Shown piece by piece: positions 42,283 through 60,864 of a stretch of DNA of 64,000 nt. Where the stretch lies: assembly GCA_017465885.1 (NCBI GenBank), contig JAFTVG010000027.1, positions 52,799-116,798 on the forward strand, read 5' to 3'. A program made the translations under genes and the position numbers. Origin of the DNA: Clostridia bacterium (GTDB lineage: Bacteria > Bacillota > Clostridia > Oscillospirales > CAG-272). A model generated the notes under the pieces. The model did not search any database. It was not told the origin of the DNA and worked only from the letters and a program-made list of their open reading frames with translations. How positions within the stretch are numbered: the first letter of the stretch is position 1; every line of letters begins with the position of its first letter.

Positions 42283-42304
42283 AATAATTGAACCTCCTGT
42301 AATA

Positions 42305-44863: not shown

Positions 44864-45778
44864 TCATGACTTCAAGAACGCTATGCGCTTTTCTTCGATC
44901 TTCTTCAAATGTTTGCCGACGGCACTGTGCGTTTTGAATCCGAGACGCTCGGCAATCTGCTTCTGCGTGTATCCGTTTGCCTTTAACTTGAAGATTTTGA
45001 CATCGGTCTCGTCACCGAGAAAGGCATAGAATTCTTTGATGGTTTCCACCATTTCAAGATGTGCCTGTGGGTCTTCGTCTGAGAACTCTGTTGCTAACTC
45101 AGGAGTTTTATGCTCGATGTCTTCCATTTGATCCAGCGATTCCAGTTCGCCAACTCTTGTACGTGTGTGATCCCATTGACGATTGAAATCCACCTTGTCA
45201 AAATTGGTGTTTGCGGTAGTTGCGAAATCCTCGTGCGCGCCGATCTCTTTCGATACGCCTAAAATCTCGGGAACGCTTTCCACTTGCATCAGCTTGTTCA
45301 TCATCACGGAAAGGAATAGATCCGCAAACTGATCGAACACAAGGGCGAACTCTGCTTCGGTCAATTCTTCAACTGTTTTGTTATGCGCCTTGGCATACTT
45401 TTCAAGCGCGGCGGTAATGTCCCCTTTTAAGGCGGTCAACATCGAATCTATGATGCGCTCACAAAGAGTTTCATCCGTGAGTATTTCCATCACGACACCG
45501 GCAACCAGATTTTCGTTTGCTTTTTCAAGACAGCGCACGGGAGCGTTGGAGGTGAAGTTGATGAGAGACCCTTTGCCTGTGAGCAGTTTCATCTGCTTAT
45601 TCCAAGACGAAAGGAAATGCTTTTTTGCTTTGATGTACACACGGTTCTGCTCGTCGGTAGCGACCATGGGATCGTATTTTGATACCTGCGTGCTGAAATC
45701 GTGGTCTCTGAAAAAGGCTTTCAGCTCCGCAATGGTCGGTGCGCTATCCTTCTCAAGCAACGTCACATCTGTTTTCAT
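44864..45778 (-). CDS. element-encoded protein with sigma-70 region-4-like C-terminal HTH
   Basis: 304 aa. The C-terminus LKANGYTQKQIAERLGFKTHSAVGKHLKKIEEKR is a region-4/LuxR-like HTH. The N-terminal 240 aa are unassigned. Confidence 0.65.
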   Translation of the reverse strand: MKTDVTLLEKDSAPTIAELKAFFRDHDFSTQVSKYDPMVATDEQNRVYIKAKKHFLSSWNKQMKLLTGKGSLINFTSNAPVRCLEKANENLVAGVVMEILTDETLCERIIDSMLTALKGDITAALEKYAKAHNKTVEELTEAEFALVFDQFADLFLSVMMNKLMQVESVPEILGVSKEIGAHEDFATTANTNFDKVDFNRQWDHTRTRVGELESLDQMEDIEHKTPELATEFSDEDPQAHLEMVETIKEFYAFLGDETDVKIFKLKANGYTQKQIAERLGFKTHSAVGKHLKKIEEKRIAFLKS

Positions 45779-45807
45779 CGATTCTCTCCTTTCACTATGG
45801 TGCTTAT

Positions 45808-45836
45808 ATTATATCATATTTTTACGAATTTTTCAA
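45808..45836 (-). promoter_or_regulatory. candidate promoter (TTGAAA-17-TGaTATAAT) of the sigma-like gene
   Basis: Minus strand: TTGAAA (complement of 45831-45836) - 17 nt - TATAAT (complement of 45808-45813) with an upstream TGA. An 18-nt core is identical to the promoter at 56835-56853. Confidence 0.65.
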
Positions 45837-45900
45837 GGAAGTAACTGTGAACAAAAAGAACAGAGGAACCGCACGTTTAGTGCAGTCCCTCCGTTTCTCC

Positions 45901-46428
45901 TTAGAAGTGTTTGCCTTCGCCCGGGCGGTCTTCGCCTTCGCCGATATAGTCTTCTACCGGTCGGTCATCGATCTCGGTCGGTGTGTCGTTCTCGAAGGGA
46001 TTCGGCTGACCGCCGATCTGAGGTTTGTATTCCGCAAGGCATTGATCCCCCTCGTCGATGCATTCGACGGTTTCTTCTTTCGATTCTGTCGTAACCGTAT
46101 CTTCGGTGATTTCGGTACATTGATCTGTCACGGTTTCTTGCGCCGTCGGTGTTTTTTCTTCATTGAACACCTCGTGTTCTTCGGTCACAACTTCGTTTTC
46201 GTTTACCGTTGTTTCCTTGATTTCAACGGCGGTTTCCGTTTTGCTTAATTCGCCTACAAACGCCGTTACTTCGCTTGTTTCGCTTGTTTCGGGTACTTGC
46301 TCCACCTGCACCGTTATCGCCGTTTGTGACGTTTTTTCGGCGGTCACGGGCGGCTCATCTGTAGCCTTTTGTGGTGTGGATAAGAGCGTCATAATTAGTG
46401 CGAGAATGATGGTGATTAACTTTTTCAT
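45901..46428 (-). CDS. secreted acidic Thr/Glu/Val-rich protein, function unknown
   Basis: The start is trimmed to ATG 46428 (MKKLITIILALIMTLLSTP signal). The mature part is low-complexity and rich in T, E and V. Confidence 0.6.
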   Translation of the reverse strand: MKKLITIILALIMTLLSTPQKATDEPPVTAEKTSQTAITVQVEQVPETSETSEVTAFVGELSKTETAVEIKETTVNENEVVTEEHEVFNEEKTPTAQETVTDQCTEITEDTVTTESKEETVECIDEGDQCLAEYKPQIGGQPNPFENDTPTEIDDRPVEDYIGEGEDRPGEGKHF

Positions 46429-46556
46429 ATATGTAATTCCTTTCCGAGCTCGTCTTTGCTGCTCAACACAAGAATAAACTGAAAAACAAATAAGTCCAGA
46501 GAGAATCGGCATGAAAATGAGGAATCGCACACATTTTGGTACGATTCCTCTGAATA

Positions 46557-46829
46557 TTATTCAATTTCTGAATTCATTACTTCGATGATGATCCTGGCTC
46601 CAAGCGTGAACCCTCTTACAAACGCCTCCCGCTCGGCGATGCCATACATCTCGTTGGTGCACTCGGTAAACTTTTCGAGAATCTCTATTTCCTCGTCATT
46701 CAGACGTTTCTTCAGATCTTCCTCGTGCCGCACGATGTAACCAAGCAGTTCAGAATACTTACTGCCTTTCTTGAAGTCCTTCTCACAAGGAGAGATGTTG
46801 CCGTACCATAATTCTTCAATGATGTTCAT
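46557..46829 (-). CDS. hypothetical 90-aa helical protein
   Basis: RBS GAAGGAGG. MNIIEELWYGNISPCEKDF... I have seen similar small proteins on Clostridial mobile elements, but I cannot name the family with confidence. Confidence 0.6.
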   Translation of the reverse strand: MNIIEELWYGNISPCEKDFKKGSKYSELLGYIVRHEEDLKKRLNDEEIEILEKFTECTNEMYGIAEREAFVRGFTLGARIIIEVMNSEIE

Positions 46830-46930
46830 TTCGCACCTCCTTCATAAAGAGAGCGGCTCCGTCTCGGGAAATCCCGATTCAGAACCGCTCTGTTTTTGTT
46901 TTTGCTATTTACTTTTCTTTTTCGTGCCAT
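46826..46930 (-). CDS. possible 34-aa highly basic peptide
   Basis: Absent from the track. ATG 46930 is preceded by AAGGAGG. It encodes MARKRKVNSKNKNRAVLNRDFPRRSRSLYEGGAK. Its TGA overlaps the downstream ATG (ATGA). Confidence 0.4.
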   Translation of the reverse strand: MARKRKVNSKNKNRAVLNRDFPRRSRSLYEGGAK

Positions 46931-47002
46931 ATGTACTACCTCCTTTTCTTGGTAGCACACACAATATCACAGAAAGGGGTGGAAGGCCAGAGAGAATAGC
47001 GA

Positions 47003-47662
47003 TTATTTTTTATTCTTTTTACCGCGTTTTTGATAGTCCGCGTTGATTTTGTCGCCCCAATCCGCGCCAAGCGGTGCACTTGCTCTGACATTGCAGACTG
47101 CTTTCGCGACCGATTCATACAGAATCTGCGTTCCTTCTTCGTCGGCATTGTAGTTTACGGCTCTATCCTTGCTGATGCCGTAACGCGCGGCTGTTTCAAC
47201 CGCATCAATGTTCGCTCCGATGAACAAGAACTCCCATCCGTACTTTTCCTTTTGACGCTCGATCATCTTCTTAACCTGCTCACTTGTGTAACGGTGGCTG
47301 GCGTTTTCCTGCCCATCGGTTGTGATGACAAACATCGTATGCTCCGGCACATCCTCGTTACGAGCGTATTTGTGAATGTTTCCGATGTGATGAATTGCAC
47401 CGCCGATGGCATCAATCAGAGCCGTGCAACCGCGAACAGTATAGTCCTTGTCGGTCATCTTTGGGATGTCACCGAGCTTCACGCGGTCGTGTAACACCTC
47501 GCTCTCGTCATCGAAAAGCACGGTGGAAACGTAGCAGCCTCCGTCTTGCTTCTTCTGCTTTTCAATCATCGAGTTAAAGCCACCGATGGTGTCGCTCTCG
47601 AGTCCTGCCATAGAGCCGCTTCTGTCCAAAATAAATACGAGTTCAGTAATGTTGTTTTTCAT
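47003..47662 (-). CDS. von Willebrand factor type A (vWA) domain protein
   Basis: The start is trimmed to ATG 47662 (MKNNITELVFILDRSGSMAG). The DxSxS MIDAS motif is present. 219 aa. Confidence 0.8.
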   Translation of the reverse strand: MKNNITELVFILDRSGSMAGLESDTIGGFNSMIEKQKKQDGGCYVSTVLFDDESEVLHDRVKLGDIPKMTDKDYTVRGCTALIDAIGGAIHHIGNIHKYARNEDVPEHTMFVITTDGQENASHRYTSEQVKKMIERQKEKYGWEFLFIGANIDAVETAARYGISKDRAVNYNADEEGTQILYESVAKAVCNVRASAPLGADWGDKINADYQKRGKKNKK

Positions 47663-47741
47663 AATTAAAAACCTCTCTTTCATTTGATGTCTATATTGTA
47701 CATCAATAAAAGAGAGGTTGGGTCGCATGTCAAGCGACAAA

Positions 47742-48098
47742 TTATTTACCTAATGTTGCACTCCACTCAGCTTCCTTAAAACCGACAAGCACGAAGCCGT
47801 CACCGATAAGCAACGGACGCTTTACGAGCATACCGTCGCTTGCGAGAAGCTTTAGCATCTCGTCATCGGTCATAGTGGGAAGCTTGTTTTTGAGGTCAAG
47901 AGATTTATAAAGCAGACCGCTTGTGTTAAAGAACTTTTTGAGGGGCAAACCGCTTTTCTTGTACCATTCTGTCAACTCATCAAGCGTGGGATTGTCGAGC
48001 TTTATATCTCTAAATTCATATTCGATTTTATTATCATCAAGCCACTTTTGCGCTTTTTGGCAAGTGGTACATTTTGGGTAGCAGATAAATTTTAACAT
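47742..48098 (-). CDS. ArsC/Spx-family (arsenate-reductase-like) thioredoxin-fold protein
   Basis: The start is trimmed to ATG 48098 (MLKFICYPKCTTCQKAQKWL, RBS AAGGAG). It has a CxxC near the N-terminus and LVKRPLL near the C-terminus, typical of the family. Confidence 0.75.
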   Translation of the reverse strand: MLKFICYPKCTTCQKAQKWLDDNKIEYEFRDIKLDNPTLDELTEWYKKSGLPLKKFFNTSGLLYKSLDLKNKLPTMTDDEMLKLLASDGMLVKRPLLIGDGFVLVGFKEAEWSATLGK

Positions 48099-48108
48099 AG
48101 TAATCTCC

Positions 48109-48411
48109 TTATTCGATGACTTCAATCAAAAAGCTTACCGGACGAAAACCATCGTTGCAAGAAATCATTGCTGATTTTGGGTTCTTCATCCATCCGTCAT
48201 AGAAATTCTCGCCACCGTGAGCAAGAGTCATTACAAACGGTGAAACGCTATCCCACGCACTGTCACAAAATCCATCGGGCTTTTGCCAACCTTCACAGAT
48301 AAAAATCTGACCTTCTTGTAAGTCACAGGCGTGTTTTATAGGATTTTCATACTTTTCAATCAAATCATCGTATCGTGCTTTTCGCATAACGGTTATCTTA
48401 ATTTTCTTCAT
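48109..48411 (-). CDS. TIGR04076-family protein (function unknown)
   Basis: 100 aa. KITVMRKARYDDLIEKYEN...CDLQEGQIFI...GFCDSAW...ISCNDGFRPVSF matches my recollection of the TIGR04076 family. Confidence 0.6.
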   Translation of the reverse strand: MKKIKITVMRKARYDDLIEKYENPIKHACDLQEGQIFICEGWQKPDGFCDSAWDSVSPFVMTLAHGGENFYDGWMKNPKSAMISCNDGFRPVSFLIEVIE

Positions 48412-48414
48412 ATC

Positions 48415-49440
48415 CTATGCCCCTAACAAACTCTGATCGAACGCAAACAGAGCCTCATTGATTTCAAAAATATTGTAGTTGCCCTTACTGATAAAGTATT
48501 CGATGATAATATCGAACTTATTGCTATGCGATAATGCGAACCCTGCCTTACGGAGCATATCCTCGGTTTCTGCGAGTGAAAGCTCCAAGGAAATCGCAAA
48601 CGCAAGCGCGGTGGGTTTGCTCGGCTTATAATGAATGTCACTACGGATTTTGGAGAACAGCTTGCGGTCAATGTTTGCTTTCTTGTAGCACTCGGCGTCG
48701 GTCATACCCTTTTCGTCAATCTTACGCAGAAGCATTTGAGAAAAGCTCTCGTCGATCTGCTTCAGCTTCGCATCAAGATCGTCCTCTGCCAGCATAGCCT
48801 TGCAATCGCATATTTCAAGAAAGTCGTCATCCGATTTCTTTCGTCTTGTGCGCGGAGCCATTGACGGTAGCGCGTTCATACGAATACGCTCACGGCTGTA
48901 ATCAGTATGCTCGTCCACATAGTTATCATCGATATATTCGGCAATGTCCGAGAACAGCTTCTCGCTGATCTTATAGGCAGCCTTGTCGAATATGACGATA
49001 TAAACGGTCATTTCGTTTTCAAGAAGAAAGTTGCTGATAACGTCGATAGCAACTTTCAAGGCTTGATCCTTGGGGTATCCGTACACACCCGATGAGATAA
49101 GCGGGAAAGCCACGGTTTCACAGTTGTTCTCCTTAGCAAGAGCCAAAGATTCGCGGTAGCAGGATTCAAGTAACGCCTTTTCTCCGTGCTTGCCGTCATT
49201 GTAGATAGGACCGACGGTATGTATTACATGCTTGGCCGGCAAATTATAACCGCCCGTAATCTTCGCTTTGCCCGTCTTGCAACCGCCAAGTGTTCTGCAT
49301 TCGGCGAGCAGTCCCAAACCCGCGGCGCGGTGAATCGCACCGTCAACACCTCCGCCGCCCAATAGCGACTCGTTGGCAGCATTGACAATGGCATCCACCT
49401 TCATTTTTGTTATATCGTTTCTTACTATTTCAAGCGGCAT
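48415..49440 (-). CDS. macro domain (ADP-ribose-binding/hydrolase) protein fused to a C-terminal HTH-like domain
   Basis: 341 aa. N-terminal MacroD/YmdB-type motifs [26 protein letters not shown] and [13 protein letters not shown]-terminal [23 protein letters not shown]...[15 protein letters not shown] resembles an XRE-like HTH. Confidence 0.85.
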
Positions 49441-49453
49441 TGGTGTTCCTCCT

Positions 49454-50530
49454 TTAATTCAATTTGCTCTCCTCTTTTATAACACTGTATTTTTCAGTTA
49501 TATACTGTGCGATACTATCGTAATCGCAAAATAGCGTTTTCTTGTTTATGCCAATCTTATCTAACTCTTTCAAAATGGCTGCTTTATTTTTAATGCGCAA
49601 TTCTATGTTTTGAAAATATAGGTGCTGTTTAGCTAACACTCTGAAGTTGTAGACGGGTTCAATATAAGTCAAATATCCTTGATATAGGAATAATCCCTGC
49701 TGATTTCTACCACGTTCAAATTTCATAATAGGCTGATATAACATATTGGGCAAAAATGTTATAGAGTGAATTGGTTCTGTATATGAGAGAGCTTTTTTGA
49801 AAAATACAAACTGCAAAGTAAGATAAAAATATAAGTCTTCATCGCAAATCTCTAACGGAAACTTCTTGACATCTTCAAAAGCATCTTGCAAATATGCAAT
49901 ACATTCCCATACATCGAACTTTTTGCGCTTTAGTTTTTTATAAAAGACTTGTTCTTTATCATCAAATGGCGAAGAAAAGTAAAACAGATAACTACTAATC
50001 AATTTTTCCATCAAAAATGAAAATGTATTGGGATGCTCTTTTTTGAACTGCTTAAATAACGGAACGAGCAACTCCAACTCGTTGATTGTATTAGCAAATA
50101 CGCACTCAATCAAATTTTCATTTGGGTATCTATGTATCAAATTAGTAACATCAATAGATTCGTCAGATCCTATATAAACGGCACCATCATCATCTTGCTT
50201 GCCGAGGCAAGCGAAATACAGAGCTGTTAATGGTGATGTTGATACATCTAAAAGATTTGTTGGCACTCCGTGATGCTGGGCAAAAGCAATAAAGTCTATC
50301 TTATCTTCGTTGAGTTTGTGGGCGGTTTCCTTATAAAACTCATCAATCATCTTCATAAACGGATACGGCTCGTTTGAGTTCCACCTAAACTCATACGGTC
50401 TAAGTGCAGACGATTGTCTTGACGGGAAAACATCTCCCTCTCCACGATAATACGAAACATTTTCAAACTTGTTTATATATCGTATATACTTTGAAAGACT
50501 ATCTATTTCTATTGTCTTTGTTTTTAACAT
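49454..50530 (-). CDS. FRG domain-containing protein
   Basis: 358 aa. YYRGEGDVF supplies the (F/Y)RG motif. [26 protein letters not shown] matches the conserved core of the FRG domain as I recall it. Very AT-rich. Confidence 0.75.
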
Positions 50531-50595
50531 CTCTTCTCCTTACCTATTAGTGTAATAGTTCAACCGTCTATTAGCTGATTCATCCGATGTAAAAA

Positions 50596-51288
50596 TTATA
50601 GAATTGTTCGTCCAAGCGTTTCCAATTTCACATCAAGCTCTTTAATAGCACTACATACTGCACCGTTCAATTTTTTTAATTCGTGATCTACGGTAGAGAA
50701 ATATTCAATTATTTCCTTTTTGGTAGGACACTCAATATCGACATTATATAATTTATCGTGTAGTGTTTCGAATTCTTCTGCTAAACTTTCTGCATCATAA
50801 GATAGTTTCTTTTTACAGTATTCGTAACCATCAAAGGGCAACAATTCATTAAATGTACTTTGCATAATGAAGGAGTTAACCCAATTTGCTCTGGAGCCTA
50901 CGTCGTAAATGAAATCAAACAACTCCGTCGTATCATCATATTTAGTAAAGTTCTTATGTAAAAGTTCGCTGTAAAACTGTATGTATTCACTCAATTTGGA
51001 TTTTAATTCTTCCAAATATGCCTTTTGAGATTTCAAGTTCGAAGTGCAGCCCTGCTTAATGCCCGAAACCAAACATATAATTAAGCCTGTTATCAATCCT
51101 GCAAAAATATTAGCACATATTGATGACCAAAAAGCCTCACCAATATTGTTCAAGTAAACGGAAACCAATAGCGCAATTATAAAAAGTGCCGTAATTATTA
51201 AAGCAATCCACAAATGAGGATAACTAACATATAACAGCAGTTTTCTTTTTGCGCTTTTTAGAAACTTTTTTATTATGTACTTATCCAT
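50596..51288 (-). CDS. 2-TM membrane protein with helical cytoplasmic domain (paralogous architecture C)
   Basis: 230 aa. Basic N-terminus, TM1 WIALIITALFIIALLVSVYL, a short loop, TM2 ICANIFAGLITGLIICLVSG, then ~140 aa of predicted helices. Confidence 0.7.
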   Translation of the reverse strand: MDKYIIKKFLKSAKRKLLLYVSYPHLWIALIITALFIIALLVSVYLNNIGEAFWSSICANIFAGLITGLIICLVSGIKQGCTSNLKSQKAYLEELKSKLSEYIQFYSELLHKNFTKYDDTTELFDFIYDVGSRANWVNSFIMQSTFNELLPFDGYEYCKKKLSYDAESLAEEFETLHDKLYNVDIECPTKKEIIEYFSTVDHELKKLNGAVCSAIKELDVKLETLGRTIL

Positions 51289-51308
51289 TCTCCATCCTCA
51301 CTGCTTTT

Positions 51309-51962
51309 TTAGAAAAAATGTTTTCCCAGAAGCATTAACTGATCTTCACGTTCACGATACAACTCTTGCATTTTGTCCGCAAGTGGCAATAACTCCGTAT
51401 GAATATCAAGTATAGTTGATTCGATTAGATTCGTTTCATTCGAATTATATAGGCTTTCCCTGTAATTGTTTAGATTATCTCTATCGACAGGATCGTATCC
51501 TTTCTCAGGAAGTATGTCATAGAGTTCTATCGGTAGTTGATTTCTTGCCAATTCAAGTTCATCAATCCATAGATATACATTCTCTCTGTCCTCAAAAATA
51601 TCCCGCTTGCTGCCATATAGAGCCTTGAGTTTATAGCAATTGGCAATATTAGTGATGTTTCTAATAACATCCAGCACATCTTTAAGCTGCTTATACTCTT
51701 TTTGGAGTTTGGCAACTTTATTGTTTCTAATATTTGACAAAAAGTAGAACACCAAACCAGTAAAACAACCACAACTTGTCGAAACCAATGCGCCTGAAGT
51801 CCAATCGGAATAATCATAAATGAGAAAAGATAAAAACAGCAAAAGTGATGCAATCACAAATATGATAATTGCCCACCAAAAAGGAGATAGCCTAAATAAT
51901 TGAGTACGCAATTCTCGATTACGATATCGTATAATTCGTTGTACTGTTTTATCTTTTCTCAT
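51309..51962 (-). CDS. 2-TM membrane protein with helical cytoplasmic domain (paralogous architecture B)
   Basis: 217 aa. Basic N-terminus, TM1 FWWAIIIFVIASLLLFLSFLIY, a short loop, TM2 ALVSTSCGCFTGLVFYFLSN, then ~120 aa of predicted helices. Confidence 0.7.
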   Translation of the reverse strand: MRKDKTVQRIIRYRNRELRTQLFRLSPFWWAIIIFVIASLLLFLSFLIYDYSDWTSGALVSTSCGCFTGLVFYFLSNIRNNKVAKLQKEYKQLKDVLDVIRNITNIANCYKLKALYGSKRDIFEDRENVYLWIDELELARNQLPIELYDILPEKGYDPVDRDNLNNYRESLYNSNETNLIESTILDIHTELLPLADKMQELYREREDQLMLLGKHFF

Positions 51963-52026
51963 AAAAACCTCGCATTGATTGGAATCATAATTCTAAGTAA
52001 CACTAAAATGTCTATTGAATGTTCCT

Positions 52027-52848
52027 TTAGCTATTATCAATCGCATTCAATTTTTCGTTCAAATCCGCATAATAGCGCATTCCTAAACCCTGTAAATTTT
52101 CTTTTTGTAAATACAGCTTCAAAATGTTATCACTAATTTCCGGCTCGGACTTGGGGATCATATTCATATAAAACAAAAAGAGCGCTAATGTGTTTTCTCC
52201 CGCTTCGGTATATACAATCCCTTCAAAATCATCTAATTGCAACTTCATCTTTTTTCCAATGTTTAGTATGATTGTTCTATTATTTATTACAATCATATCA
52301 AATTGTTCTTGTTTAGGAACTTTATTTGAAACATAGAAAGTAGTGATATTGGATATTAGAGTTCTTATATCAGCGTATGTTTTGTCTGCAAAAATAAATG
52401 TTGGGATTCTTTTGACGCATTCTTTTCCTTCCTCCGAGCGTTCAAATCCAGTTCTTATCCTAATGAGTTTTTTTACACTTTGAACCTGTTTTAAACCTCT
52501 TTCAATTTCATTATTATTCGACAAATCCGGTTTAACTTCAATTGCATAATCTACTCCATCTGCAAAGATAATGGATGGTTTTCCTCTTTCACCATCCAAA
52601 GTGTACGGATGAGAGGGGTTAATAACAATACAATCTATAGAATTACTTCTGTTTCCAAAACTGTCAATAATATTGCCTTTAACAATTCTAAATGGAAAAG
52701 GGAAAAATTTTTCCAAGAAGTTATGGATTATATCTTCACGTCGGTCAGATACTTCTTGTGGGGTACCTTCTCCCTCAATACTTGCTTTTGCAAACGAAGT
52801 TGCAATCTCTTGTGATTCTATTTTGAGTATTTCCAGTAGCTTGCTCAT
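52027..52848 (-). CDS. PD-(D/E)xK-like nuclease-fold protein (DUF6602-like)
   Basis: 273 aa. A candidate catalytic pattern is D in NSIDCIVINP followed ~30 aa later by AIEVKPD (ExK). The ATG overlaps the stop of the MmeI-family gene (ATGA at 52845-52848). Confidence 0.65.
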   Translation of the reverse strand: MSKLLEILKIESQEIATSFAKASIEGEGTPQEVSDRREDIIHNFLEKFFPFPFRIVKGNIIDSFGNRSNSIDCIVINPSHPYTLDGERGKPSIIFADGVDYAIEVKPDLSNNNEIERGLKQVQSVKKLIRIRTGFERSEEGKECVKRIPTFIFADKTYADIRTLISNITTFYVSNKVPKQEQFDMIVINNRTIILNIGKKMKLQLDDFEGIVYTEAGENTLALFLFYMNMIPKSEPEISDNILKLYLQKENLQGLGMRYYADLNEKLNAIDNS

Positions 52849-55619
52849 TGTTTATCCTCCATTAACTTTTGATACATCTTCATCAGCTCCGCAACACAAG
52901 TGCTTTCCGTCATAGTCTTCACGTCGAAGCCATACGCCTGCATTACGGCGCGGTCATTTGCTTGATGTGCCTTGCGGAGTTCGGGTGGCATAGCAACTTC
53001 ATCATAAAGGTCTGCCAAAGAACAATCGGGATAGAGTGCGCGTGCGTCAAGAATAGCCAGTGCTGTTTCCTCAATCTTCTTTTTCTGTTCGGCGGTAGGA
53101 TTGCACCAAGGAAAGTTGTTATACACAACTGAACCACTATATCTATATCTCATCTCTAAGCGACCGGCAACAGTTCTCATCCAAGCATTGTGAACATTAG
53201 ATGTTAACACACCAAAATGATATAACGTTGCGCCACAAATAATTGCACACGCGTCAGAGGCAATCACCTCTGGCTCCATAAATCCTATTGGTATATATTT
53301 TCTGTTTTCAGATGAATGTCTTGGTATGATAAGATAGTTTTCGTCTGTTTGCGGTGTTGAAAAGAAAAGATATGGTTTCTCGGCTGATTTACGTGTTGGC
53401 TCAGCAGAGCTATTCTCTCTAAACTGTTTAATCGCAAGCAACCTTTTAGCAATTTCCTTGTTTTTTCTATACAGTGCAGGAGATACGCCTTTTAACCACA
53501 AACAATATCTTTCAATATCGTTATTTAAAAAATCTTTTGCTCCTACATAACGTCTAATGCACGGTGCTACAGCTGGATCATTAGCGACAAGCGCATCTCT
53601 TTCTTCTTTGGAGAGTATGAAATTTCCATCATCTGTAGGTTGGTTTCCTTTTGTCATCTTAGGAACATCGCAAATCGGCTTACTTCTACTTGTTACAAAA
53701 ACAGTTGGCGCATTTATTAAATAGCCGTTGATATTATCAACGAATTGAAAATGATCGCCATCGAACAATTTTTTCTTTCCCAAATTTTCTTCAACACTAA
53801 ATCCAACGATTACACAGTGAACATGGGCTTTAAGGTTAGCTTCACTGTCCCAACGAAAAGTTCTATAAGCAAAGTTTATATGAATGCCATAATGAGTAAA
53901 CAAAGTTTCCCAAAGAGGTGATACCTGCTCACCTTGTGTAATACTGTTGGTTGATACTAATGCTACTCTTACATTGGTTCCTTGTATCAATTTTGCTGCT
54001 TTATGATACCAAGCACCCACGTAGTCAATACTATTGGATAATTTAATTTTTCCAAAAATTGCTACTGCGTCATCCTTTTGTTCTTTTGTCATCATAGATG
54101 CACCAACGAAAGGCGGATTACCCATAATGTAATTCAGCTTGTCCTTGGGTACAACAGTTTCCCAATCGGTACGAAGAGCGTTGCCTTCTACAATGTTGGC
54201 ATAAGATTTCAAGGGAAGAAAATCGAGGGACATATTTACAATGTCCTCTGTCTCTTTGAGCATCTGGCTTTCTGCAATCCAAAGCGCAGTTTTCGCAACG
54301 GTTACGGCAAAGTCATTGATCTCAATGCCATAAAATTGCCCGATTGATACTTTAATAAAGCCTTCGAAGCCAAGCAAAATCTGCCCTTGGTTTATAATTT
54401 CAAGTGCTTCGTTCTCCAAACGGCGCAAGGAGATATAAGTTTCGGTTAAGAAGTTACCGGAACCACAGGCGGGATCAAAGAATGTAAGCTTAGACAGCTT
54501 TTCACGGAATGCTTCTGCTTTATCGTTGCGAATCTTGGGGACTTTCAATGCCTTGATCTCTGCAAGCTCCTCGCGGAGTTCATCCAGGAACAGCGGATCA
54601 ATAACCTTATGGATGTTCTCAATAGAGGTATAGTGCATACCGCCGCTACGACGGGTTTCGGGGTTCAAGGTGCTTTCAAATACTGCGCCGAAGATGGTGG
54701 GGCTGATCTGCGACCAATCAAAATCTTCACTTGCATTGTGCAGGAGCAGGTCAACAATATCCTGCGTCATGTTGGGAATTTCAATATTTTCGTCAGCAAA
54801 CAAGCCACCATTGACGTAAGGAAATGCTGCCAAAGCGGCATCTATATAAGGATCACGCTCTTCGGTTTTGGTATCGAGCACACGGAAAAGGTCAATGAGT
54901 GCACGGCGCACATCTTTCACGTTAAAGCTCTTTATGTAATTATGGAATTTCAGATGACCGCCGAAAATGCCTGCGTCCTCTGCATAAAGGCAGAATACAA
55001 GACGGACACAAAGCATATTCAAGCTGCGCAGAGTTTCCTCACTGTCGGGATGAATGTACTGCTTCAAAATTGCATCGTACAACTTGCCGACAAGCTCACC
55101 GGCTTTGATGGAGATCTGTTCTTCACGGTGCAGAAGCTCGCTCTTTTCTTCCACAAGAAACTGCAGGCGATAATACTCTTTACCGAGGTCCTTCAGCAAA
55201 ATACTTTCCGGCTCACCGGTGGGCTTCTCCATGTCGTAAATAAGGAACTCTTCAAAATTACAGGTGATGATCCAACGTGGACGCTGCGAATAAGGCAGTG
55301 CCGCCGAATATCTCTGCGCTTGTTGAAAGGGATTGAGCAAAGTACCATCCGATTGACGAATGGGGCTACGCAAATTGAGTCCCTTCTTTTTCTGCTCAAT
55401 GAGCACATGGGTAGAAGGGATATGACCGTCAATAAAGCTTGTGTGGTCCAGCTTTACACGTTCCTCAAACAATATAAACTTTTCGGGTTCCGCAACGCCT
55501 AAAACGTCACGGGCAAGAGAAAGCCAAAAAGATTGGCTGTCGCTTTTTTCGTCACCACGGTCTTTCCAATATTCCGCAAAAGCCTTTGCGGCTCTTTTTC
55601 TATCTGTATCTGTCATCAT
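52845..55619 (-). CDS. MmeI-family type IIL restriction-modification enzyme (fused nuclease-methyltransferase-TRD)
   Basis: 924 aa from ATG 55619 (RBS AGGAGA). The track start at 55637 is a TTG. The N-terminus has FIDGHIPSTHVLIEQKK (D-x10-ExK, as in the MmeI nuclease). AdoMet motif I is FFDPACGSGNFL. Catalytic motif IV is IMGNPPFVG. The size and order match MmeI-like enzymes. Confidence 0.85.
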   Translation of the reverse strand: MMTDTDRKRAAKAFAEYWKDRGDEKSDSQSFWLSLARDVLGVAEPEKFILFEERVKLDHTSFIDGHIPSTHVLIEQKKKGLNLRSPIRQSDGTLLNPFQQAQRYSAALPYSQRPRWIITCNFEEFLIYDMEKPTGEPESILLKDLGKEYYRLQFLVEEKSELLHREEQISIKAGELVGKLYDAILKQYIHPDSEETLRSLNMLCVRLVFCLYAEDAGIFGGHLKFHNYIKSFNVKDVRRALIDLFRVLDTKTEERDPYIDAALAAFPYVNGGLFADENIEIPNMTQDIVDLLLHNASEDFDWSQISPTIFGAVFESTLNPETRRSGGMHYTSIENIHKVIDPLFLDELREELAEIKALKVPKIRNDKAEAFREKLSKLTFFDPACGSGNFLTETYISLRRLENEALEIINQGQILLGFEGFIKVSIGQFYGIEINDFAVTVAKTALWIAESQMLKETEDIVNMSLDFLPLKSYANIVEGNALRTDWETVVPKDKLNYIMGNPPFVGASMMTKEQKDDAVAIFGKIKLSNSIDYVGAWYHKAAKLIQGTNVRVALVSTNSITQGEQVSPLWETLFTHYGIHINFAYRTFRWDSEANLKAHVHCVIVGFSVEENLGKKKLFDGDHFQFVDNINGYLINAPTVFVTSRSKPICDVPKMTKGNQPTDDGNFILSKEERDALVANDPAVAPCIRRYVGAKDFLNNDIERYCLWLKGVSPALYRKNKEIAKRLLAIKQFRENSSAEPTRKSAEKPYLFFSTPQTDENYLIIPRHSSENRKYIPIGFMEPEVIASDACAIICGATLYHFGVLTSNVHNAWMRTVAGRLEMRYRYSGSVVYNNFPWCNPTAEQKKKIEETALAILDARALYPDCSLADLYDEVAMPPELRKAHQANDRAVMQAYGFDVKTMTESTCVAELMKMYQKLMEDKQ

Positions 55620-55633
55620 AATATCTCCTATAA

Positions 55634-56581
55634 TCAAAATGCGCTTTCTTCTTCAACGAAGCCGGTAATGTGTCTAAGTTGAGAAAACACGGGGACTTTC
55701 TTCTCGTACTTAACTTCTTTTCTAAAATATATTTTAGAACGAAATTCTTCAATTCTATCGGACACATCGTCAAACTTCCTTTGATATACAGTGGTCCACT
55801 CACTACCGTCTTTTTGAGTAGTTTCGGTTGCAAAAAAGAAATCATTGAGATCCAAAACCTTTTTGCAACATACACCAAAACTGCCTTTTCCGTCCTTTAT
55901 CATATTAAAATGAAATACTTCTAATTTGATTTTATTTAGATATTCTTGGAGCTTGGAATAAATCGACTCAAAAGCAATGAGGCGGATCTTTTTGTTGTCG
56001 AAAAGGAAATCTAAATTGCCATACGCATTTGATAAATCCTCCAAATCGATTTTTGATGCGGCAATATACATATCCATATATTTCGTAAATATATTGCTAT
56101 AGTTTTCAATACGTTCATTATAAATTCGAATCAAGATTGATTCGATATCATCACTCTCGGAGAAGGACATTGGTTCATTTTCTTGCATCCAAGCAATGTA
56201 GGCATCACGTTTTTTATGAACCGCCTCGACCCCTAATGCTTTAGCAGTTTCGCCGTCACATTTTTCCCACAGTTTGTTATGCTGTTCTTCTGATATACAA
56301 TCCAATATCAATACTTGAGGCTCATCCAATTTCAGAAATTTAATTTTTCTGAGTTGCACATAAACTTTATATGCAGCTCTTAAAAAATCTTCCATTGCCC
56401 TCCTGCGTTCTGCAAAGTATTCTATCAATGACATAATAAATCCAAGCAACGCGCTACCGAAGATTGCCATTGAAATATCGTACATGAGCTTAATGCAAAA
56501 ACAATTTGCAATTATAGCACAGATTAACGAAACAGCAGAAATTCCGGCGGTGATAAAAGTTACCCATTTTTTTGCTTTCAT
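55634..56581 (-). CDS. 2-TM membrane protein with long helical cytoplasmic domain (paralogous architecture A)
   Basis: The start is trimmed to ATG 56581 (MKAKKWVTF...). TM1 FITAGISAVSLICAIIANCFCI, a short loop, TM2 MAIFGSALLGFIMSLIEYF, then ~250 aa. Very AT-rich. Confidence 0.7.
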   Translation of the reverse strand: MKAKKWVTFITAGISAVSLICAIIANCFCIKLMYDISMAIFGSALLGFIMSLIEYFAERRRAMEDFLRAAYKVYVQLRKIKFLKLDEPQVLILDCISEEQHNKLWEKCDGETAKALGVEAVHKKRDAYIAWMQENEPMSFSESDDIESILIRIYNERIENYSNIFTKYMDMYIAASKIDLEDLSNAYGNLDFLFDNKKIRLIAFESIYSKLQEYLNKIKLEVFHFNMIKDGKGSFGVCCKKVLDLNDFFFATETTQKDGSEWTTVYQRKFDDVSDRIEEFRSKIYFRKEVKYEKKVPVFSQLRHITGFVEEESAF

Positions 56582-56594
56582 ACTCTGAATCCTT

Positions 56595-56801
56595 TCATTT
56601 AGCAGATTTGTCAGCTGCTTTGCCGCTCTTAATCCATGCGTCAACTTCGCTTGTCTTAAACTTCCAACTACGCCCCACCTTGCTTGCGGGCATCTTCTTT
56701 TCATTGATCCAAGTGAGCAGGGTGTCACGGCTTACACCAAGATACTCACACATTTCTTTGGTGGAACACCAACGTTCGGGCATATTTTTTAAATCTCGCA
56801 T
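56595..56801 (-). CDS. excisionase-family / HTH_17-type DNA-binding protein
   Basis: 68 aa. WCSTKEMCEYLGVSRDTLLTWINEKKMPASKVGRSWKFKTSEVDAWI is the MerR-like excisionase HTH. RBS GGAGAGG. It is the first gene inside the right end of the element. Confidence 0.8.
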   Translation of the reverse strand: MRDLKNMPERWCSTKEMCEYLGVSRDTLLTWINEKKMPASKVGRSWKFKTSEVDAWIKSGKAADKSAK

Positions 56802-56866: not shown

Positions 56867-57023
56867 CGGGTTATTGCGGAATTGTGCGGAGTTAAATCGA
56901 AATTATTTGTAAAATGCCGAATTTGATTTGACTATTGACATTTTTTAAAACAAAAAAGCCATAGTACAGAACTCAAATAAATTCTATACTATGGCTTTTC
57001 GCTTCTCTCAATCGGTTGTTTTA

Positions 57024-57038: not shown

Positions 57039-57160
57039 AAGAGTCACCCATCGGGCTTCTTTTTTTTTTATTCAAGCAGCGGGGGCGTAGCAAGCACGCC
57101 GCGCTTTGTGGGGTGCGGGCTTTTATCATATCAGCCTTGGTACGGATTTTCCTTGCTTGA

Positions 57161-57415
57161 TCAAGAGACGAAAATGGTGATCTCTGTGCCTTGTTCATTT
57201 TTTTTCTGCACCTCGATCAGCTTCCATTCGGGATGGGTTGATGCATATTTCCTTGTTTTCCGAAAGAGAATGCGCAGCTGCTTATAGGACAGGCTTACGC
57301 CCTCTTTTTTCAACCTTTTTGAAAGAAGAAGGGCAGACGGTCCGTTGAGCAAAAGAGCGTTTGGCAGGCGCAGACGTAGGCGTTTTTTGCCGTTTTCGCG
57401 TAGGATGATCTGCAT
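57161..57415 (-). CDS. small basic protein, paralogous to the C-terminal domain of the upstream XRE regulator
   Basis: 84 aa, 3 nt after the XRE stop. QIILRENGKKRLRLRLPNALL and KLIEVQ...EITIFV align with RIIVNSADGDRIRVNLPLQLL and DLVEVE...VIQIRV of the neighbour. Confidence 0.6.
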   Translation of the reverse strand: MQIILRENGKKRLRLRLPNALLLNGPSALLLSKRLKKEGVSLSYKQLRILFRKTRKYASTHPEWKLIEVQKKNEQGTEITIFVS

Positions 57416-57418
57416 CGC

Positions 57419-57919
57419 TCACTCCACCCGGATTTGGATAACGTCCCCGTCTGAGGACTCCACCTCCACCAGATCTCCGATAACGCCCTGCGCGAGGATC
57501 GCCATAACCTGCTCCCAGTTAACCTGCTCCAGCGCCGAATTTCCCGAGATACGGGGTGGCTCCAGCCCGCAATCCATTGCCGTTTTGAGTAGCTGAAGGG
57601 GAAGATTGACCCTTATTCGATCCCCGTCGGCGGAGTTCACGATGATCCGCAATACGCGATCCCCCGTGTTTTGGCGCTCTTCCTCGGGAAGCATCCTTAC
57701 GGCAGCCTCCTGCGCCTGCTTTCCGCTGAGCAGCTCGTCCGTACTGACGCCAAGAACCTTTGAAAGCTGTGGCAACAGGCTGATATCGGGGCAGGTCTGA
57801 TCGTTTTCCCATTTGCTGACCGCTTGACCACTGACGTTCAACCGATCTGCCAGCTCCTCTTGGGTAAGTCCCTTGCTTTTTCGCAGTTCTGCGATTCTTT
57901 TTCCGATCGTTTCGTTCAT
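57419..57919 (-). CDS. XRE-family HTH regulator with C-terminal domain
   Basis: The start is trimmed to ATG 57919 (MNETIGKRIAELRKSKGLTQEELADRLNVSGQAVSKWENDQ, RBS AAAGGAGA). Confidence 0.85.
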   Translation of the reverse strand: MNETIGKRIAELRKSKGLTQEELADRLNVSGQAVSKWENDQTCPDISLLPQLSKVLGVSTDELLSGKQAQEAAVRMLPEEERQNTGDRVLRIIVNSADGDRIRVNLPLQLLKTAMDCGLEPPRISGNSALEQVNWEQVMAILAQGVIGDLVEVESSDGDVIQIRVE

Positions 57920-58089
57920 TTCCCTTGTCTCCTTTCGTTTGGTAGATCCATTATACCTGCTTTTTTTGAAAAATGGAATAGATTGTCGGTTGGATATGGG
58001 GGATTTTGTCCAACCAAAGTGGGAATATTCACTCAACCGTCGGTTGGACGAGCAATCTTACGGCAATGAAAGCGGTAAAGATCTTTTCT

Positions 58090-58155
58090 AAAAAAGCTCC
58101 CGCATTTTCTTGCTCTCCCAAAGGGAGCAGGAATGCGGGAGCTTCTATATTTTTA
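58090..58155. terminator. hairpin terminator between the 365-aa gene and the XRE upstream region
   Basis: GCTCCCGCATT (58096-58106) pairs with AATGCGGGAGC (58132-58142). It is flanked by an A-run and a T-rich tract. Confidence 0.6.
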
Positions 58156-59250
58156 AGGGTTAAAAAACTGCCCTCCCGTGACGCTGACCCTCAAAAGGGC
58201 GGGATTGAGCACGTCCACCGTTTTGCCGTTATAAAGCAGGGTGAGCGTTTGTCCGTCGATATACCAGCCGTGGCAGAGGGCGTTTCCTCCCTGACCGGGC
58301 TGGCGGTGCAGGATGTCCAGATCGGGGCTCTCTCCGCCGTCGATGTTGGCGGTGACGTAGTTGACGATCCCTTCTTTGTCGGTGATCCTGTGGAATACCG
58401 TCAGGCTTTCTCCGTTTTGACGGTCAAAGTTCAGACTTTTACATTCCTCCACGAACTCGCCGCCTCCCGCGATGACGGTGTAGTAGAGCACCAAACTCAG
58501 GGTCGTTTCGCTTTGGTAAAAGCGCACCGTGATCTCCGCGTCGATCGGCCCGAGGAAGCCGCTGTAATTCTTTCGGTAGTTGTTTTTGATGGAGTTGACC
58601 AGACTCTCCACGCCGTTTTTGATGCCCTCGTTGACTGCCTGCTCTACAGCGGTACTCTCGGGCACCACCACCGCAGGCAGGTAATATTTCAGTGTGCAGG
58701 CGTTGCCAAGCTCCTCTTTTACCGTTTCACTTCTGTATTCCTCCTGACGGACAGCCTGCAAATAGGGTTCGGGGAGGGGCTCGGGCTCCCTTGAGGGCTC
58801 AACGGTGGGATCTTCTGAGGGAGAGGGCACCGTGGGCAGGTCGGGGGAGGGGGAAGGTGAGGGCAGGGGGTCTGCCGAGGGGGAGGAGAGGGGGGCGGAG
58901 TCTGCCGAAGGCAGCTTGGAGAAGGGCGACGCAGGCAGAGAGGAAAGCGTGCCGTCCGAGGGGGAGGCGGAAGGCTGTTGATCGGTGGTCTTGTCCGCAC
59001 CCATCAGGTGAGGGATTGCAAAGCAGAGGAGTATGGCGGCAAGCAGGAGGGTGATGAGCAAAAGCAGGATCGTTGCCCCCGAAAGCCCCTTCTTTTCGGG
59101 AGGGGGCGGGGTCCTTCTTGCTCTCGGCTTTGCCGTCGTGCCGCTTTTGGGACGGGAGGTGCCGCTTGCCGTCCTCCTTTGGGTTGTGGATCGGGAGCTT
59201 GCCGTGTTCTTTTTCACGGCAGGCTTTTTTGGTGTGTTCGTTTCTTTCAT
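58153..59250 (-). CDS. membrane-anchored protein with Pro/Ser-rich linker and C-terminal globular domain, function unknown
   Basis: 365 aa. Basic N-terminal tail, one TM (ATILLLLITLLLAAILLCFAI), ~90 aa of P/S-rich low complexity, then a ~190-aa domain. Confidence 0.65.
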   Translation of the reverse strand: MKETNTPKKPAVKKNTASSRSTTQRRTASGTSRPKSGTTAKPRARRTPPPPEKKGLSGATILLLLITLLLAAILLCFAIPHLMGADKTTDQQPSASPSDGTLSSLPASPFSKLPSADSAPLSSPSADPLPSPSPSPDLPTVPSPSEDPTVEPSREPEPLPEPYLQAVRQEEYRSETVKEELGNACTLKYYLPAVVVPESTAVEQAVNEGIKNGVESLVNSIKNNYRKNYSGFLGPIDAEITVRFYQSETTLSLVLYYTVIAGGGEFVEECKSLNFDRQNGESLTVFHRITDKEGIVNYVTANIDGGESPDLDILHRQPGQGGNALCHGWYIDGQTLTLLYNGKTVDVLNPALLRVSVTGGQFFNP

Positions 59251-59265
59251 ATTGTCCTTTCCGCA

Positions 59266-60828
59266 TTAAAGCATGGGCTCAAAAAGCCGCATTGCCGAAA
59301 CGAAGAACCGCAGAGGTGCGGGCTGTTTCTTGATGTTTTCGGGGCGAAGCTCTCTGCAACGCTCAAGGGTAGATAAAAAGTCCTTTTTCACCTGCAAAAC
59401 GGCGTCTGTGCCAAAGCAAAGTGCACCGCATTCATAGTGCAGATAGAGGCTTCTGTAATCCAAATTGGTGGTTCCCACCGAGCAGACGGTGTCGTCGCAC
59501 ACGAAATTCTTGCTGTGGATGAAGCCGGGCAGGTATTCATAGATGCGCACGCCCGCCTCTGACAGCTCCTTATAGTAGGAGCGGGAGATCACGTGCACCA
59601 CTGCGTGGTCGCCGTGATAAGGGGTGATGAGACGGACGTCCACGCCGCTCTTTGCGGCGATCTGCAGAGCGCTGAGGATGTCATCGCCCGGGATCAGGTA
59701 GGGGGAGGTGATATAAAGATAGTCGCGGGCAGAATTGATCAGAGCAAGATAGAGCTCCTTAATGCAGTTGCTTTCAAGAAGGGGGGAATCGGCGTAGGGA
59801 ATGACAAAGCCGGGGGCTTGCTCTGCGGCGGTATGGTCAAAAAAGAGGGTGGGGTCGGGGTCAACCTTGTGGTTGGTATACCACATTTCAAGGAAAAAGC
59901 GGGTGAACTGCGCCGCCGCCCGTCCCTCTATACGGATGCCGCTGTCAAGCCAATGACCGAAGCGGTCGTACTGATTGATGTACTCATCGGACAGATTGAT
60001 GCCGCCCGTATAGGCGATCCTGCCGTCGATGGATACGATCTTGCGGTGATCTCGGTTGTTTTGCATGGTGGAGATCAGGGGGACGAACTTTTGAAAGACC
60101 TTGGCTTCGATCCCCTTTTCCTTCAGCCTTTTGCAGTATCCTGCGGGCAGGGTCTTTAGCGACCCCATGCCGTCGTAAAGGATGCGGACGACCACGCCTT
60201 CTTTTGCCTTTTGCTCCAAGATCTCTAAGATGCTGTCCCACATCACCCCTTCATGGATGATGAAAAACTCTAAAAAGATGAATTTTTCGGCAGAGCACAG
60301 ATCCTCCAAAAGGCGCTTGTGATAGCGCTCGCCGCTTTCAAGAAAGTCGGTATCGGTGGCGGCAAAGGAAGGAAAGCCCTCGCTTAAGAGATAGTGGGGC
60401 AGGGTTGAAAAATTTTTCAACTCGTTTTTTGGGGGGAGGTGCTTGGGGGGCAGATCGCTTTGCAGAAGTGCGCGGTTGCTTTTGATGCGGGCAAGGGCAA
60501 TGCGGTGCATATTTCGGCTGCGGGCAAGCAGGTAAAAGCTGCCGCCTGCCGCAGGAAAGAGCAGGATGGGCACAGCCCAGGCAAGCTTATATGCCGTGGG
60601 GCATTTGCGGTTGATGATGGTGAGCACTACTGCGATGCTGACCATATAGAAAAAGACGTAAGCTCCCGCATAATAGATGCTCTCCCCCGAGCGCAGGAAC
60701 AGACCCATATACATCAGGATCAACAGCAAAAACTGCACGAGCAACAGAAGAATGACGATCACCATCGTGGAGAGAAAATAACGGATCGCCTTGGGGCTGG
60801 TATAGGATTTGTGTTTGCTTTTTGCCAT
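59266..60828 (-). CDS. cls: cardiolipin synthase
   Basis: 520 aa. N-terminal TMs and two PLD HKD motifs (NRDHRKIVSIDGRIAYTGGINL and IHSKNFVCDDTVCSVGTTNLD). Confidence 0.92.
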   Translation of the reverse strand: MAKSKHKSYTSPKAIRYFLSTMVIVILLLLVQFLLLILMYMGLFLRSGESIYYAGAYVFFYMVSIAVVLTIINRKCPTAYKLAWAVPILLFPAAGGSFYLLARSRNMHRIALARIKSNRALLQSDLPPKHLPPKNELKNFSTLPHYLLSEGFPSFAATDTDFLESGERYHKRLLEDLCSAEKFIFLEFFIIHEGVMWDSILEILEQKAKEGVVVRILYDGMGSLKTLPAGYCKRLKEKGIEAKVFQKFVPLISTMQNNRDHRKIVSIDGRIAYTGGINLSDEYINQYDRFGHWLDSGIRIEGRAAAQFTRFFLEMWYTNHKVDPDPTLFFDHTAAEQAPGFVIPYADSPLLESNCIKELYLALINSARDYLYITSPYLIPGDDILSALQIAAKSGVDVRLITPYHGDHAVVHVISRSYYKELSEAGVRIYEYLPGFIHSKNFVCDDTVCSVGTTNLDYRSLYLHYECGALCFGTDAVLQVKKDFLSTLERCRELRPENIKKQPAPLRFFVSAMRLFEPML

Positions 60829-60864
60829 GATGTCTGCTCCTTTCGTGAATTTGAAATTATAAAA

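Follow-up and report, generated by a model that had tools for sequence, protein, structure and literature searches.

Variable cargo slot of a mobilizable element in a Clostridia bacterium as a probable composite defence island with restriction-linked transmembrane protein families

We analysed a 64,000-nucleotide (nt) stretch of the genome of a gut Clostridia bacterium (GenBank assembly GCA_017465885.1, contig JAFTVG010000027.1, positions 52,799 to 116,798; hereafter the window, whose own numbering is used throughout). Within it, seven consecutive minus-strand genes at 49454-56801 had been proposed, in an earlier reading made from the sequence only, to be either a defence island of several mini-systems or one undescribed multi-gene system. 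We found that this block is the variable cargo slot of an integrative mobilizable element of ~18 kb (about 38.8-57.0 kb of the window), and we consider it, with a probability of roughly 0.8, to be a composite defence island, that is, a stack of separable defences built from separately mobile anti-phage genes. The composite island is supported, and a single system is not, because the modules do not co-occur outside this element. The slot would hold four independently acquired modules: (i) HTH_17-2TM-A-MmeI; (ii) DUF6602; (iii) 2TM-B with 2TM-C; and (iv) FRG. The genes of the block (2TM, protein with two transmembrane (TM) segments) and the signals in front of it are:

56953-57000, minus strand: long hairpin followed by a T-run, from a terminator-like scan, just upstream of the promoter at 56866-56838
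56866-56838, minus strand: sigma-70-type promoter TTGAAA-17-TATAAT with extended TG, 11/12, the best site in 12 kb
56801-56595, minus strand: HTH_17/excisionase-family DNA-binding protein, 68 aa
56581-55634, minus strand: 2TM-A, protein with an N-terminal TM hairpin, 315 aa
55616-52845, minus strand: MmeI-family type IIL enzyme, 923 aa, ATG start (alternative TTG at 55637)
52848-52027, minus strand: protein with a DUF6602/NucC-like PD-(D/E)xK nuclease domain, 273 aa
51962-51309, minus strand: 2TM-B, 217 aa
51288-50596, minus strand: 2TM-C, 230 aa
50530-49454, minus strand: FRG-domain protein, 358 aa

The slot was delimited by comparison with ~200 fetched genome, plasmid and metagenome loci (labelled L001, L002 and so on), which include 80 genome loci with an MmeI gene at 62-98% identity, all from gut or rumen Clostridia. 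On the promoter side, the segment 56825-57015, containing both hairpin and promoter, is 80% identical in L046, where it likewise precedes cargo; L046 keeps both promoter hexamers, and the similarity stops ~10 nt past the -10 box, from where the sequence runs straight into MmeI. On the opposite side, backbone homology restarts exactly at the start of a Macro-domain gene (49440) in L030, L046 and L067. Between these borders the relatives carry different genes: MmeI only, with Macro directly next (L071); MmeI, PD-T4-7 and an ApeA-type HEPN/PDC-S58 gene (L030); MmeI, an OLD/GajA-like (Gabija-like) AAA_15-TOPRIM protein and a 190-aa protein (L046 and L033); or HTH_17-Fic, a 245-aa protein, MmeI and AbiU2 (L067). 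The coordinates chosen in the sequence-only reading coincide with a real unit, namely this slot, which is filled differently in each relative.

Beyond the slot, the element consists of a mobility module and a set of backbone genes:

49440-48415, minus strand: Macro-domain protein, 341 aa (Pfam Macro, 1.5e-47), first backbone gene after the slot
48411-48109, minus strand: TIGR04076 protein, backbone accessory gene
48098-47742, minus strand: ArsC/Spx-like gene, backbone accessory gene
47662-47003, minus strand: vWA-like gene (phrog_7371), backbone accessory gene
43670-38818, minus strand: mobility module with AAA_25 protein, MobC/NikA, relaxase and large serine recombinase (Pfam)

An integrative mobilizable element is indicated by the recombinase together with relaxase and MobC, by a break in GC content, and by borders evident from comparison, the homology with relatives stopping near 38818 (against L030) and near 57015. 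No att-type direct repeats of at least 9 nt were found at the element ends, an absence that is usual for serine recombinases. The Macro protein also matches NF001664 above its cut-off (213 bits), and the TIGR04076, ArsC/Spx-like and vWA-like trio, which travels with Macro, is found downstream of MmeI in L067 and L071 as well. In L030 (15278-16162), the first part of Macro abuts the 3' end of the serine-recombinase region, a junction that corresponds to window positions 49440-48805 and 39066-38818; L030 is a decayed copy of the element that has lost all mobilisation genes and kept MmeI and two defence genes.

To follow the cargo genes outside this element, profile hidden Markov models (HMMs) of the 2TM families and multi-sequence HMMs of FRG and DUF6602 were run over all fetched loci. 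DUF6602, FRG and 2TM-B/C occur together only in copies of this element (L001-L009), and a homolog of DUF6602, FRG or 2TM-B/C lies within 10 kb of MmeI in none of the 80 MmeI loci (0/80). A 2TM-B homolog of 70% identity has no DUF6602, 2TM-C or FRG gene beside it, and a 2TM-C homolog of 81% identity is not followed by FRG. The proposal of several mini-systems is upheld by these data, as the content of the slot varies among relatives and every component also turns up elsewhere unaccompanied by the rest. The proposal of one multi-gene system is not, given that conserved linkage is absent between DUF6602 and FRG, and between either of them and the 2TM genes or MmeI. The co-occurrence check suggested along with these proposals had a divided outcome: DUF6602 and FRG are unlinked, but the 2TM genes are recurrently linked to MmeI-like or other restriction-modification (RM) genes, as described below.

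Most of what had been read from the layout of the block was borne out. The coordinates of the open reading frames (ORFs) give seven consecutive minus-strand genes, with gaps that, as claimed, do not exceed 65 nt; the measured values range from -4 to 65 nt (13, 17, -4, 64, 20 and 65 nt in order from HTH to FRG), the negative one being the overlap of the DUF6602 start with the MmeI stop (ATGA, 4 nt). Scans with Pfam and PADLOC confirmed the domain labels HTH, MmeI, DUF6602 and FRG, and hydropathy together with AlphaFold models supports N-terminal TM hairpins in the three proteins labelled 2TM, although the second TM segment (TM2) of 2TM-B stays under the hydropathy threshold, yet aligns to TM2 of 2TM-C. 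For 2TM-A we favour the ATG preceded by a ribosome-binding site (315 aa) over the GTG at 56728 given by the ORF tool, a start that would run into the HTH gene; contigs of identical sequence, called independently, also yield 315 aa.

Further statements about the block were checked and refined. The 60-nt lines quoted for their low GC content recompute to 28-32%, and the block as a whole has 37.5%, compared with 46% in the element backbone stretch (38001-49453), 52-54% in the flanks (1-37000 and 57101-64000) and 53-59% in individual core genes. By gene, GC is ~33% for DUF6602, 2TM-C and FRG, 43% for MmeI and 45% for HTH. At third codon positions the GC fraction falls in three tiers, from 0.61-0.73 in host genes through about 0.39-0.61 in element backbone genes to 0.41 in MmeI and 0.28-0.35 in 2TM-A, DUF6602, 2TM-B, 2TM-C and FRG. 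The promoter, described as the single strong site, is indeed the best (11/12), but several 10/12 sites lie within the block, one of them directly 5' of FRG (50624-50595), and the number of promoter-like sites in the region (33 found, 27 +/- 5.7 expected) is not above chance. Finally, the cargo genes do end at 49454, but the tight co-directional run continues beyond it with Macro (gap 13), the TIGR04076 protein (3), the ArsC/Spx-like gene (10) and the vWA-like gene (79 nt), which are backbone, not cargo.

The 923-aa enzyme aligns end to end with MmeI (5hr4, E 7e-206), exceeds the cut-offs of Pfam MmeI_N, MmeI_hel, MmeI_Mtase, MmeI_TRD and MmeI_C, and matches PADLOC REase_MTase_IIG over its full length with 1167 bits. 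In its translation we read the nuclease motif D..EQK (D-x(9-10)-E-x-K) at FIDGHIPSTHVLIEQK and the methyltransferase motifs DPACGSGNFL (I) and GNPPFVG (IV), and it is a complete, probably active type IIL RM enzyme. MmeI-family type IIL enzymes cut about 20/18 nt from their site and methylate one strand. The stretch least conserved among MmeI relatives, around 53336-53796, covers the target recognition domain (TRD), and its divergence would fit switching of specificity. In L026 an MmeI gene (9989-12755) with 98% protein and 92% DNA identity shares homology with the window (52862-55629) that ends at the ORF borders; MmeI moves on its own, because L026 has only this ORF in common in an otherwise unrelated context. 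A 297-aa plus-strand ORF lies antisense within MmeI (54609-55502), and L030 has one of equal length; conservation of the sequence, not a gene, probably accounts for it.

DUF6602-like proteins had been described as having no assigned function, a statement that needs updating. The window protein matches Pfam DUF6602 above the cut-off (6e-20), PADLOC NucC (2.5e-16) and a Cas-associated PD_DExK model, and phmmer aligns it to Serratia NucC (7zgv) over about 115 residues (E 4e-7), including the ID...EVK motif; by these matches its domain is a NucC-like PD-(D/E)xK nuclease domain. NucC is an effector nuclease of CBASS and type III CRISPR systems, and its relatives normally depend on a second messenger for activation. 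Pfam and PADLOC scans of the block, of the other element genes and of flanking genes on both sides turned up no CD-NTase and no type III CRISPR gene. A DUF6602 protein has been published as Damona, an anti-phage system consisting of a single gene in a single integron cassette (bioRxiv 10.1101/2024.07.02.601686), and a DUF6602 homolog stands alone on a Kocuria plasmid. By analogy with Damona, the window protein is probably a stand-alone abortive-infection or DNA-degrading effector.

The same update applies to FRG, likewise said to lack a function: Aravind and co-workers place it in the ADP-ribosyltransferase (ART) superfamily as a predicted NADase-type effector, and count it among the ART-fold enzymes that can make signals derived from ADP-ribose (PMC9503650). 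The window protein matches Pfam FRG (2.8e-16), phrog_24967 (2e-71) and PADLOC PDC-S15 models (up to 2.4e-35, one over residues 5-349), and full-length homologs are present on 304 plasmids. Four of these plasmid loci were inspected: in two the FRG gene stands alone, in one it follows a gene for a 230-aa hypothetical protein, and in one it ends a type I RM operon; none of the four has a Macro, DUF6602 or 2TM-family neighbour. The 230-aa protein, which precedes the FRG gene of Clostridium butyricum, was considered as a 2TM-C homolog and is not a member of that family. FRG and Macro were likewise rejected as a DarTG-like pair, Macro being without FRG in L030, L046, L067 and L071 and the four plasmid FRG genes being without Macro. 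The type I operon is that of Cetobacterium somerae plasmid p3 (L195:1-6023), HsdR-HsdM-HsdS-FRG with a 14-nt gap, where FRG occupies the same place, appended to RM genes, as the 2TM-A family does elsewhere.

The short HTH protein (Pfam HTH_17, 4e-17; TIGR01764 'excise', above cut-off) probably regulates either the slot or the element. Membership in MADS was examined and rejected, with MAD1 at 67 bits against a cut-off of 80, MAD2 at 14 against 720, and no other mad genes.

The three 2TM proteins have no match in Pfam or PADLOC at E <= 0.1 and none in NCBIfam or PHROGs. Homologs are nevertheless numerous, with at least 219 for 2TM-A, 38 clusters for 2TM-B and 44 clusters for 2TM-C, and a combined B and C profile collects 333 clusters among 1.84 billion representatives. 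Aligned with hhalign, the 2TM-B and 2TM-C families match with 97% probability (E 1e-10, 201 columns), by which they are distant paralogs; 2TM-A resembles 2TM-C over the TM hairpin only (81% probability, E 1e-5) and does not resemble 2TM-B, so that it is possibly related to the B/C families. The only fusions seen in the B/C superfamily are extra N-terminal TM or low-complexity segments, with no enzymatic domain. In the AlphaFold models of 2TM-A (pLDDT 89) and 2TM-C (pLDDT 90), the second helix of the TM hairpin runs on into a helical cytoplasmic domain, which in 2TM-A also contains a small beta-sheet; compared with the PDB, these models gave no fold match below E 0.05, only generic helical bundles with low TM-scores. 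TM2 is the most conserved part of each family (SCGCFTGLVxYFLSNxRNNK in B, ANIFAGLITGLIxCLxSGxKQ in C, FGSALLGFIMSLxEYFxERR in A), and the conserved Gly/Thr-rich character of this segment suggests oligomerisation in the membrane.

The genes that surround 2TM homologs are often RM genes. In ~20 of 71 distinct metagenome contexts, 2TM-A is the last gene of an HsdM-HsdS-HsdR operon, separated from the rest by 12-16 nt. Counted by position, RM genes in the same direction fill -1, -2 and -3 upstream of 2TM-A in 20/65, 18/58 and 18/50 cases, and the downstream positions +1, +2 and +3 in 1/63, 1/52 and 0/45. 2TM-A also follows a type III Res and SLFN_AlbA_2 pair, lies inside a DISARM-like operon with a 4-nt overlap with DrmMI, and directly precedes MmeI in L059, L061 and L070. 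In L059 (8134-14156) the order is HTH_17-Fic (SoFic/PDC-S04-like), 2TM-A, MmeI and an ApeA-like HEPN gene; in L061 (8086-14446) it is 2TM-A, MmeI and a Swt1-like HEPN gene, with T5orf172 in addition and an upstream HTH_17-Fic that is probable by length only. The order HTH_17-Fic, 2TM-A, MmeI mirrors the HTH_17, 2TM-A, MmeI of the window, the Fic fusion replacing the short HTH protein. Of the 12 clusters that 2TM-A forms at 80% identity, 6 lie next to RM genes, and members of a single cluster can differ in whether they have the RM operon.

For the other two families, a 2TM-B homolog (70% identity) begins 7 nt after MmeI in L199-L202 (recombinase, HU, MmeI, 2TM-B, DUF2971-like), another lies within HsdM-HsdS-2TM-B-197aa-HsdR in L015, and a 2TM-C homolog overlaps the end of a 60%-identical MmeI in L019/L021. 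Members of all three families are embedded in or appended to RM operons, as is PrrC. Further neighbours of the 2TM families are AAA_15/21, a Cap15-like receptor, KAP NTPase, Abi_2, TIR, HEPN and SRA-type restriction genes. We also asked whether 2TM-B and 2TM-C form a conserved pair and rejected this, the small membrane proteins encoded beside their homologs elsewhere (221, 197, 217 and 232 aa) belonging to neither family.

Two recurrent gene sets with 2TM homologs were noticed in this survey. The first, of four genes, recurs in L010 (2-3654), L011 (184-4058) and L017 (2-3335); it encodes an AAA_15/AAA_21 ATPase of 612-616 aa, a homolog of 2TM-B, a single-TM protein of 221 aa and a 172-aa protein resembling the Cap15 cyclic-dinucleotide receptor, the last being part of the L010 and L011 sets and absent in L017. 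This looks like a candidate system of its own. The second is a small island around 2TM-A in L125 and L128-L130 (for example L130:5971-10637), in which Abi_2, a KAP-family NTPase and a second 272-aa gene, possibly another Abi_2, come after the 2TM-A homolog.

As a composite island, the slot would work as follows. The conserved backbone promoter at 56866-56838 would read into it, so that any insert there would be transcribed from this promoter. MmeI would cut unmethylated incoming DNA, the NucC-like nuclease and FRG would be stand-alone effectors of the abortive-infection type, FRG with its ART fold as a predicted consumer of NAD+, and the 2TM proteins would act at the membrane, presumably as effectors or tethers that either assist the RM enzyme or back it up. 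Each module is expected to defend on its own. Several points weigh against this picture. The 4-nt overlap of MmeI and DUF6602 and the one shared promoter allow co-expression and some cross-talk; the neighbourhood sample for DUF6602 is one plasmid plus the literature; homologs of 2TM-A, -B and -C adjoin MmeI elsewhere, so that modules (i) and (iii) may not be independent of RM; and PDC-S15, to which FRG belongs by sequence, is a candidate single-gene defence on computational grounds only.

Among other explanations, one integrated system, in which an ADP-ribose-derived signal made by FRG would activate the NucC-like nuclease and the 2TM effectors behind MmeI as first line, appears highly improbable. 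It would account for seven genes of shared AT-rich composition lying tightly spaced behind one strong promoter; it would also supply a trigger for the DUF6602 protein, a point left open by the need of NucC relatives for a second messenger and the lack of a cyclase or CRISPR gene among the scanned genes, and FRG is among the ART-fold enzymes able to make such signals. The neighbourhood data nevertheless bring this explanation close to refutation: the FRG and DUF6602 HMMs have 0 members in about 195 other loci with relatives of MmeI or 2TM-A/B/C, no 2TM-B/C member lies near the plasmid FRG or DUF6602 genes, and at 70-81% identity 2TM-B and 2TM-C are already apart from each other and from DUF6602 and FRG. 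Moreover, related elements fill the slot with unrelated genes, and the DUF6602 protein of Damona works alone. We also regard it as improbable, if less so, that some of the unassigned genes serve the element itself, the 2TM proteins in entry or surface exclusion or in addiction, and FRG with Macro as a DarTG-like toxin-antitoxin. FRG, an ART-fold protein, is encoded 13 nt upstream of the Macro hydrolase, a layout like that of DarT-DarG; the mobilizable elements that carry the genes have relaxases alongside them; and no close relative of 2TM-B, 2TM-C, DUF6602 or FRG was found in a viral contig collection. Macro, however, is a backbone gene that lacks FRG in the four loci named above, the four plasmid FRG homologs lack Macro, and the neighbours of the 2TM genes are overwhelmingly defence genes (RM, DISARM, Abi_2, KAP NTPase, AAA_15/21, Cap15-like, TIR and HEPN).

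The strongest competitor, which we hold as a tentative alternative with perhaps one chance in three, takes the 2TM proteins for functional partners of RM enzymes, so that HTH-2TM-A-MmeI and MmeI...2TM-B-2TM-C would be one extended RM system, with DUF6602 and FRG separate. As a PrrC-like guardian, a 2TM effector would stay silent under an intact RM enzyme and permeabilise the membrane when that enzyme is inhibited or overwhelmed; as a tether, it would hold the RM enzyme where DNA enters the cell, in the spirit of SNIPE, a membrane-located nuclease that cleaves entering DNA (PMC13190303). Both forms are read from gene order only. Precedent comes from PrrC, the anticodon nuclease in a type I locus that is released on enzyme inhibition, and from the remark in a review that some RM systems carry accessory toxin-like genes (both PMC12707154). 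Partnership would explain why 2TM-A ends HsdMSR operons with so marked an upstream bias of RM genes (20/65 at -1, 1/63 at +1), why it recurs with type III Res and SLFN_AlbA_2, DISARM and MmeI and is RM-adjacent in half of its clusters, and why 2TM-B follows MmeI or sits in the PrrC position and 2TM-C overlaps MmeI. Yet MmeI does not need such a partner, as 76 of its 80 closest relatives lack a 2TM gene beside them; many 2TM-A genes lie beside housekeeping genes or alone on mobile genetic elements; and RM operons come and go within one 80% cluster. Types I, IIL and III and DISARM differ mechanistically, which argues against a specific protein contact, and in the window DUF6602 separates MmeI from 2TM-B/C. 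RM genes are, in addition, the commonest inhabitants of defence islands, and the counts given are raw counts over the sampled contexts. Somewhat less probable still, though possible, is the broader proposal that 2TM-B/C, and possibly 2TM-A, constitute an undescribed superfamily of RM accessory membrane proteins that spans type I, IIL/MmeI, III and DISARM systems.

On the composite-island reading, there is precedent for the island, as a mobile-element hotspot filled with defence genes, and for most of its components, and only the 2TM families are new. As far as the libraries and papers searched show, the RM-linked 2TM families are undescribed; we found no account of RM-linked transmembrane accessory proteins in the literature, which is weak evidence of novelty given the limited library. 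These families are the part worth following up. If they are accessories, the window would hold an MmeI system with three membrane accessories; if they cooperate with restriction enzymes, a membrane component would be added to RM biology, together with a second worked example, after PrrC, of cells backing up restriction. The sharp borders of the slot, from promoter to Macro, also make it a practical site at which to find defence genes in elements of gut Clostridia, in which few such genes have been tested so far.

Outside the element, three features of the window may be recorded. A tRNA-Val gene lies at 37712-37788, ~1 kb outside the inferred left end, and the AT-rich stretch between it and the element (39.5% GC at 38001-39000, with a 150-aa plus-strand ORF without family match) may be the remnant of another insertion. 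The host part of the window encodes a 965-aa BspA-type leucine-rich-repeat surface protein (32994-35891, plus strand).

Compared with known systems, the window enzyme agrees with MmeI (5hr4) in full length, in all five domains and in the D..ExK and methyltransferase motifs, and differs in the accessory genes on either side of its gene, which MmeI itself works without. The DUF6602 protein shares the PD-(D/E)xK fold and the aligned ID...EVK motif with NucC, but at low identity (E 4e-7), and among the genes covered by the Pfam and PADLOC scans none is a cyclase or CRISPR gene that could supply its signal. With Damona it shares the DUF6602 domain, the likeness to the tested Vibrio protein being one of domain, and no partner is detectable for it. 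The FRG protein is indistinct from other members of PDC-S15, which it matches over its full length and through its FRG domain, with an ART-fold NADase predicted.

The 2TM proteins resemble the CBASS effectors Cap14/Cap15, Pycsar effectors and SLATT 2TM effectors in having an N-terminal TM hairpin with a cytoplasmic domain; they differ from SLATT and Cap15 effectors in the absence of a sequence match, in a helical bundle without structural match and in having no linked signal-producing enzyme. Their tight coupling to RM operons recalls PrrC/RloC, most closely in L015, where 2TM-B takes the prrC position between hsdS and hsdR. Unlike PrrC/RloC, however, they are small membrane proteins without an anticodon-nuclease or ATPase domain, and they accompany several RM types. 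The slot as a whole is most like the defence-gene hotspots of mobile elements, such as those of P2/P4, in which the element flanks are conserved and the anti-phage gene sets vary (PMC9122126): conserved flanks, cargo swapped among related elements and expression of the cargo from the element are common to both. Here, in contrast, the carrier is a serine-recombinase/relaxase mobilizable element of gut Clostridia, and the slot is bounded by a conserved promoter immediately ahead of it and by Macro after it, with MmeI often as the first cargo gene.

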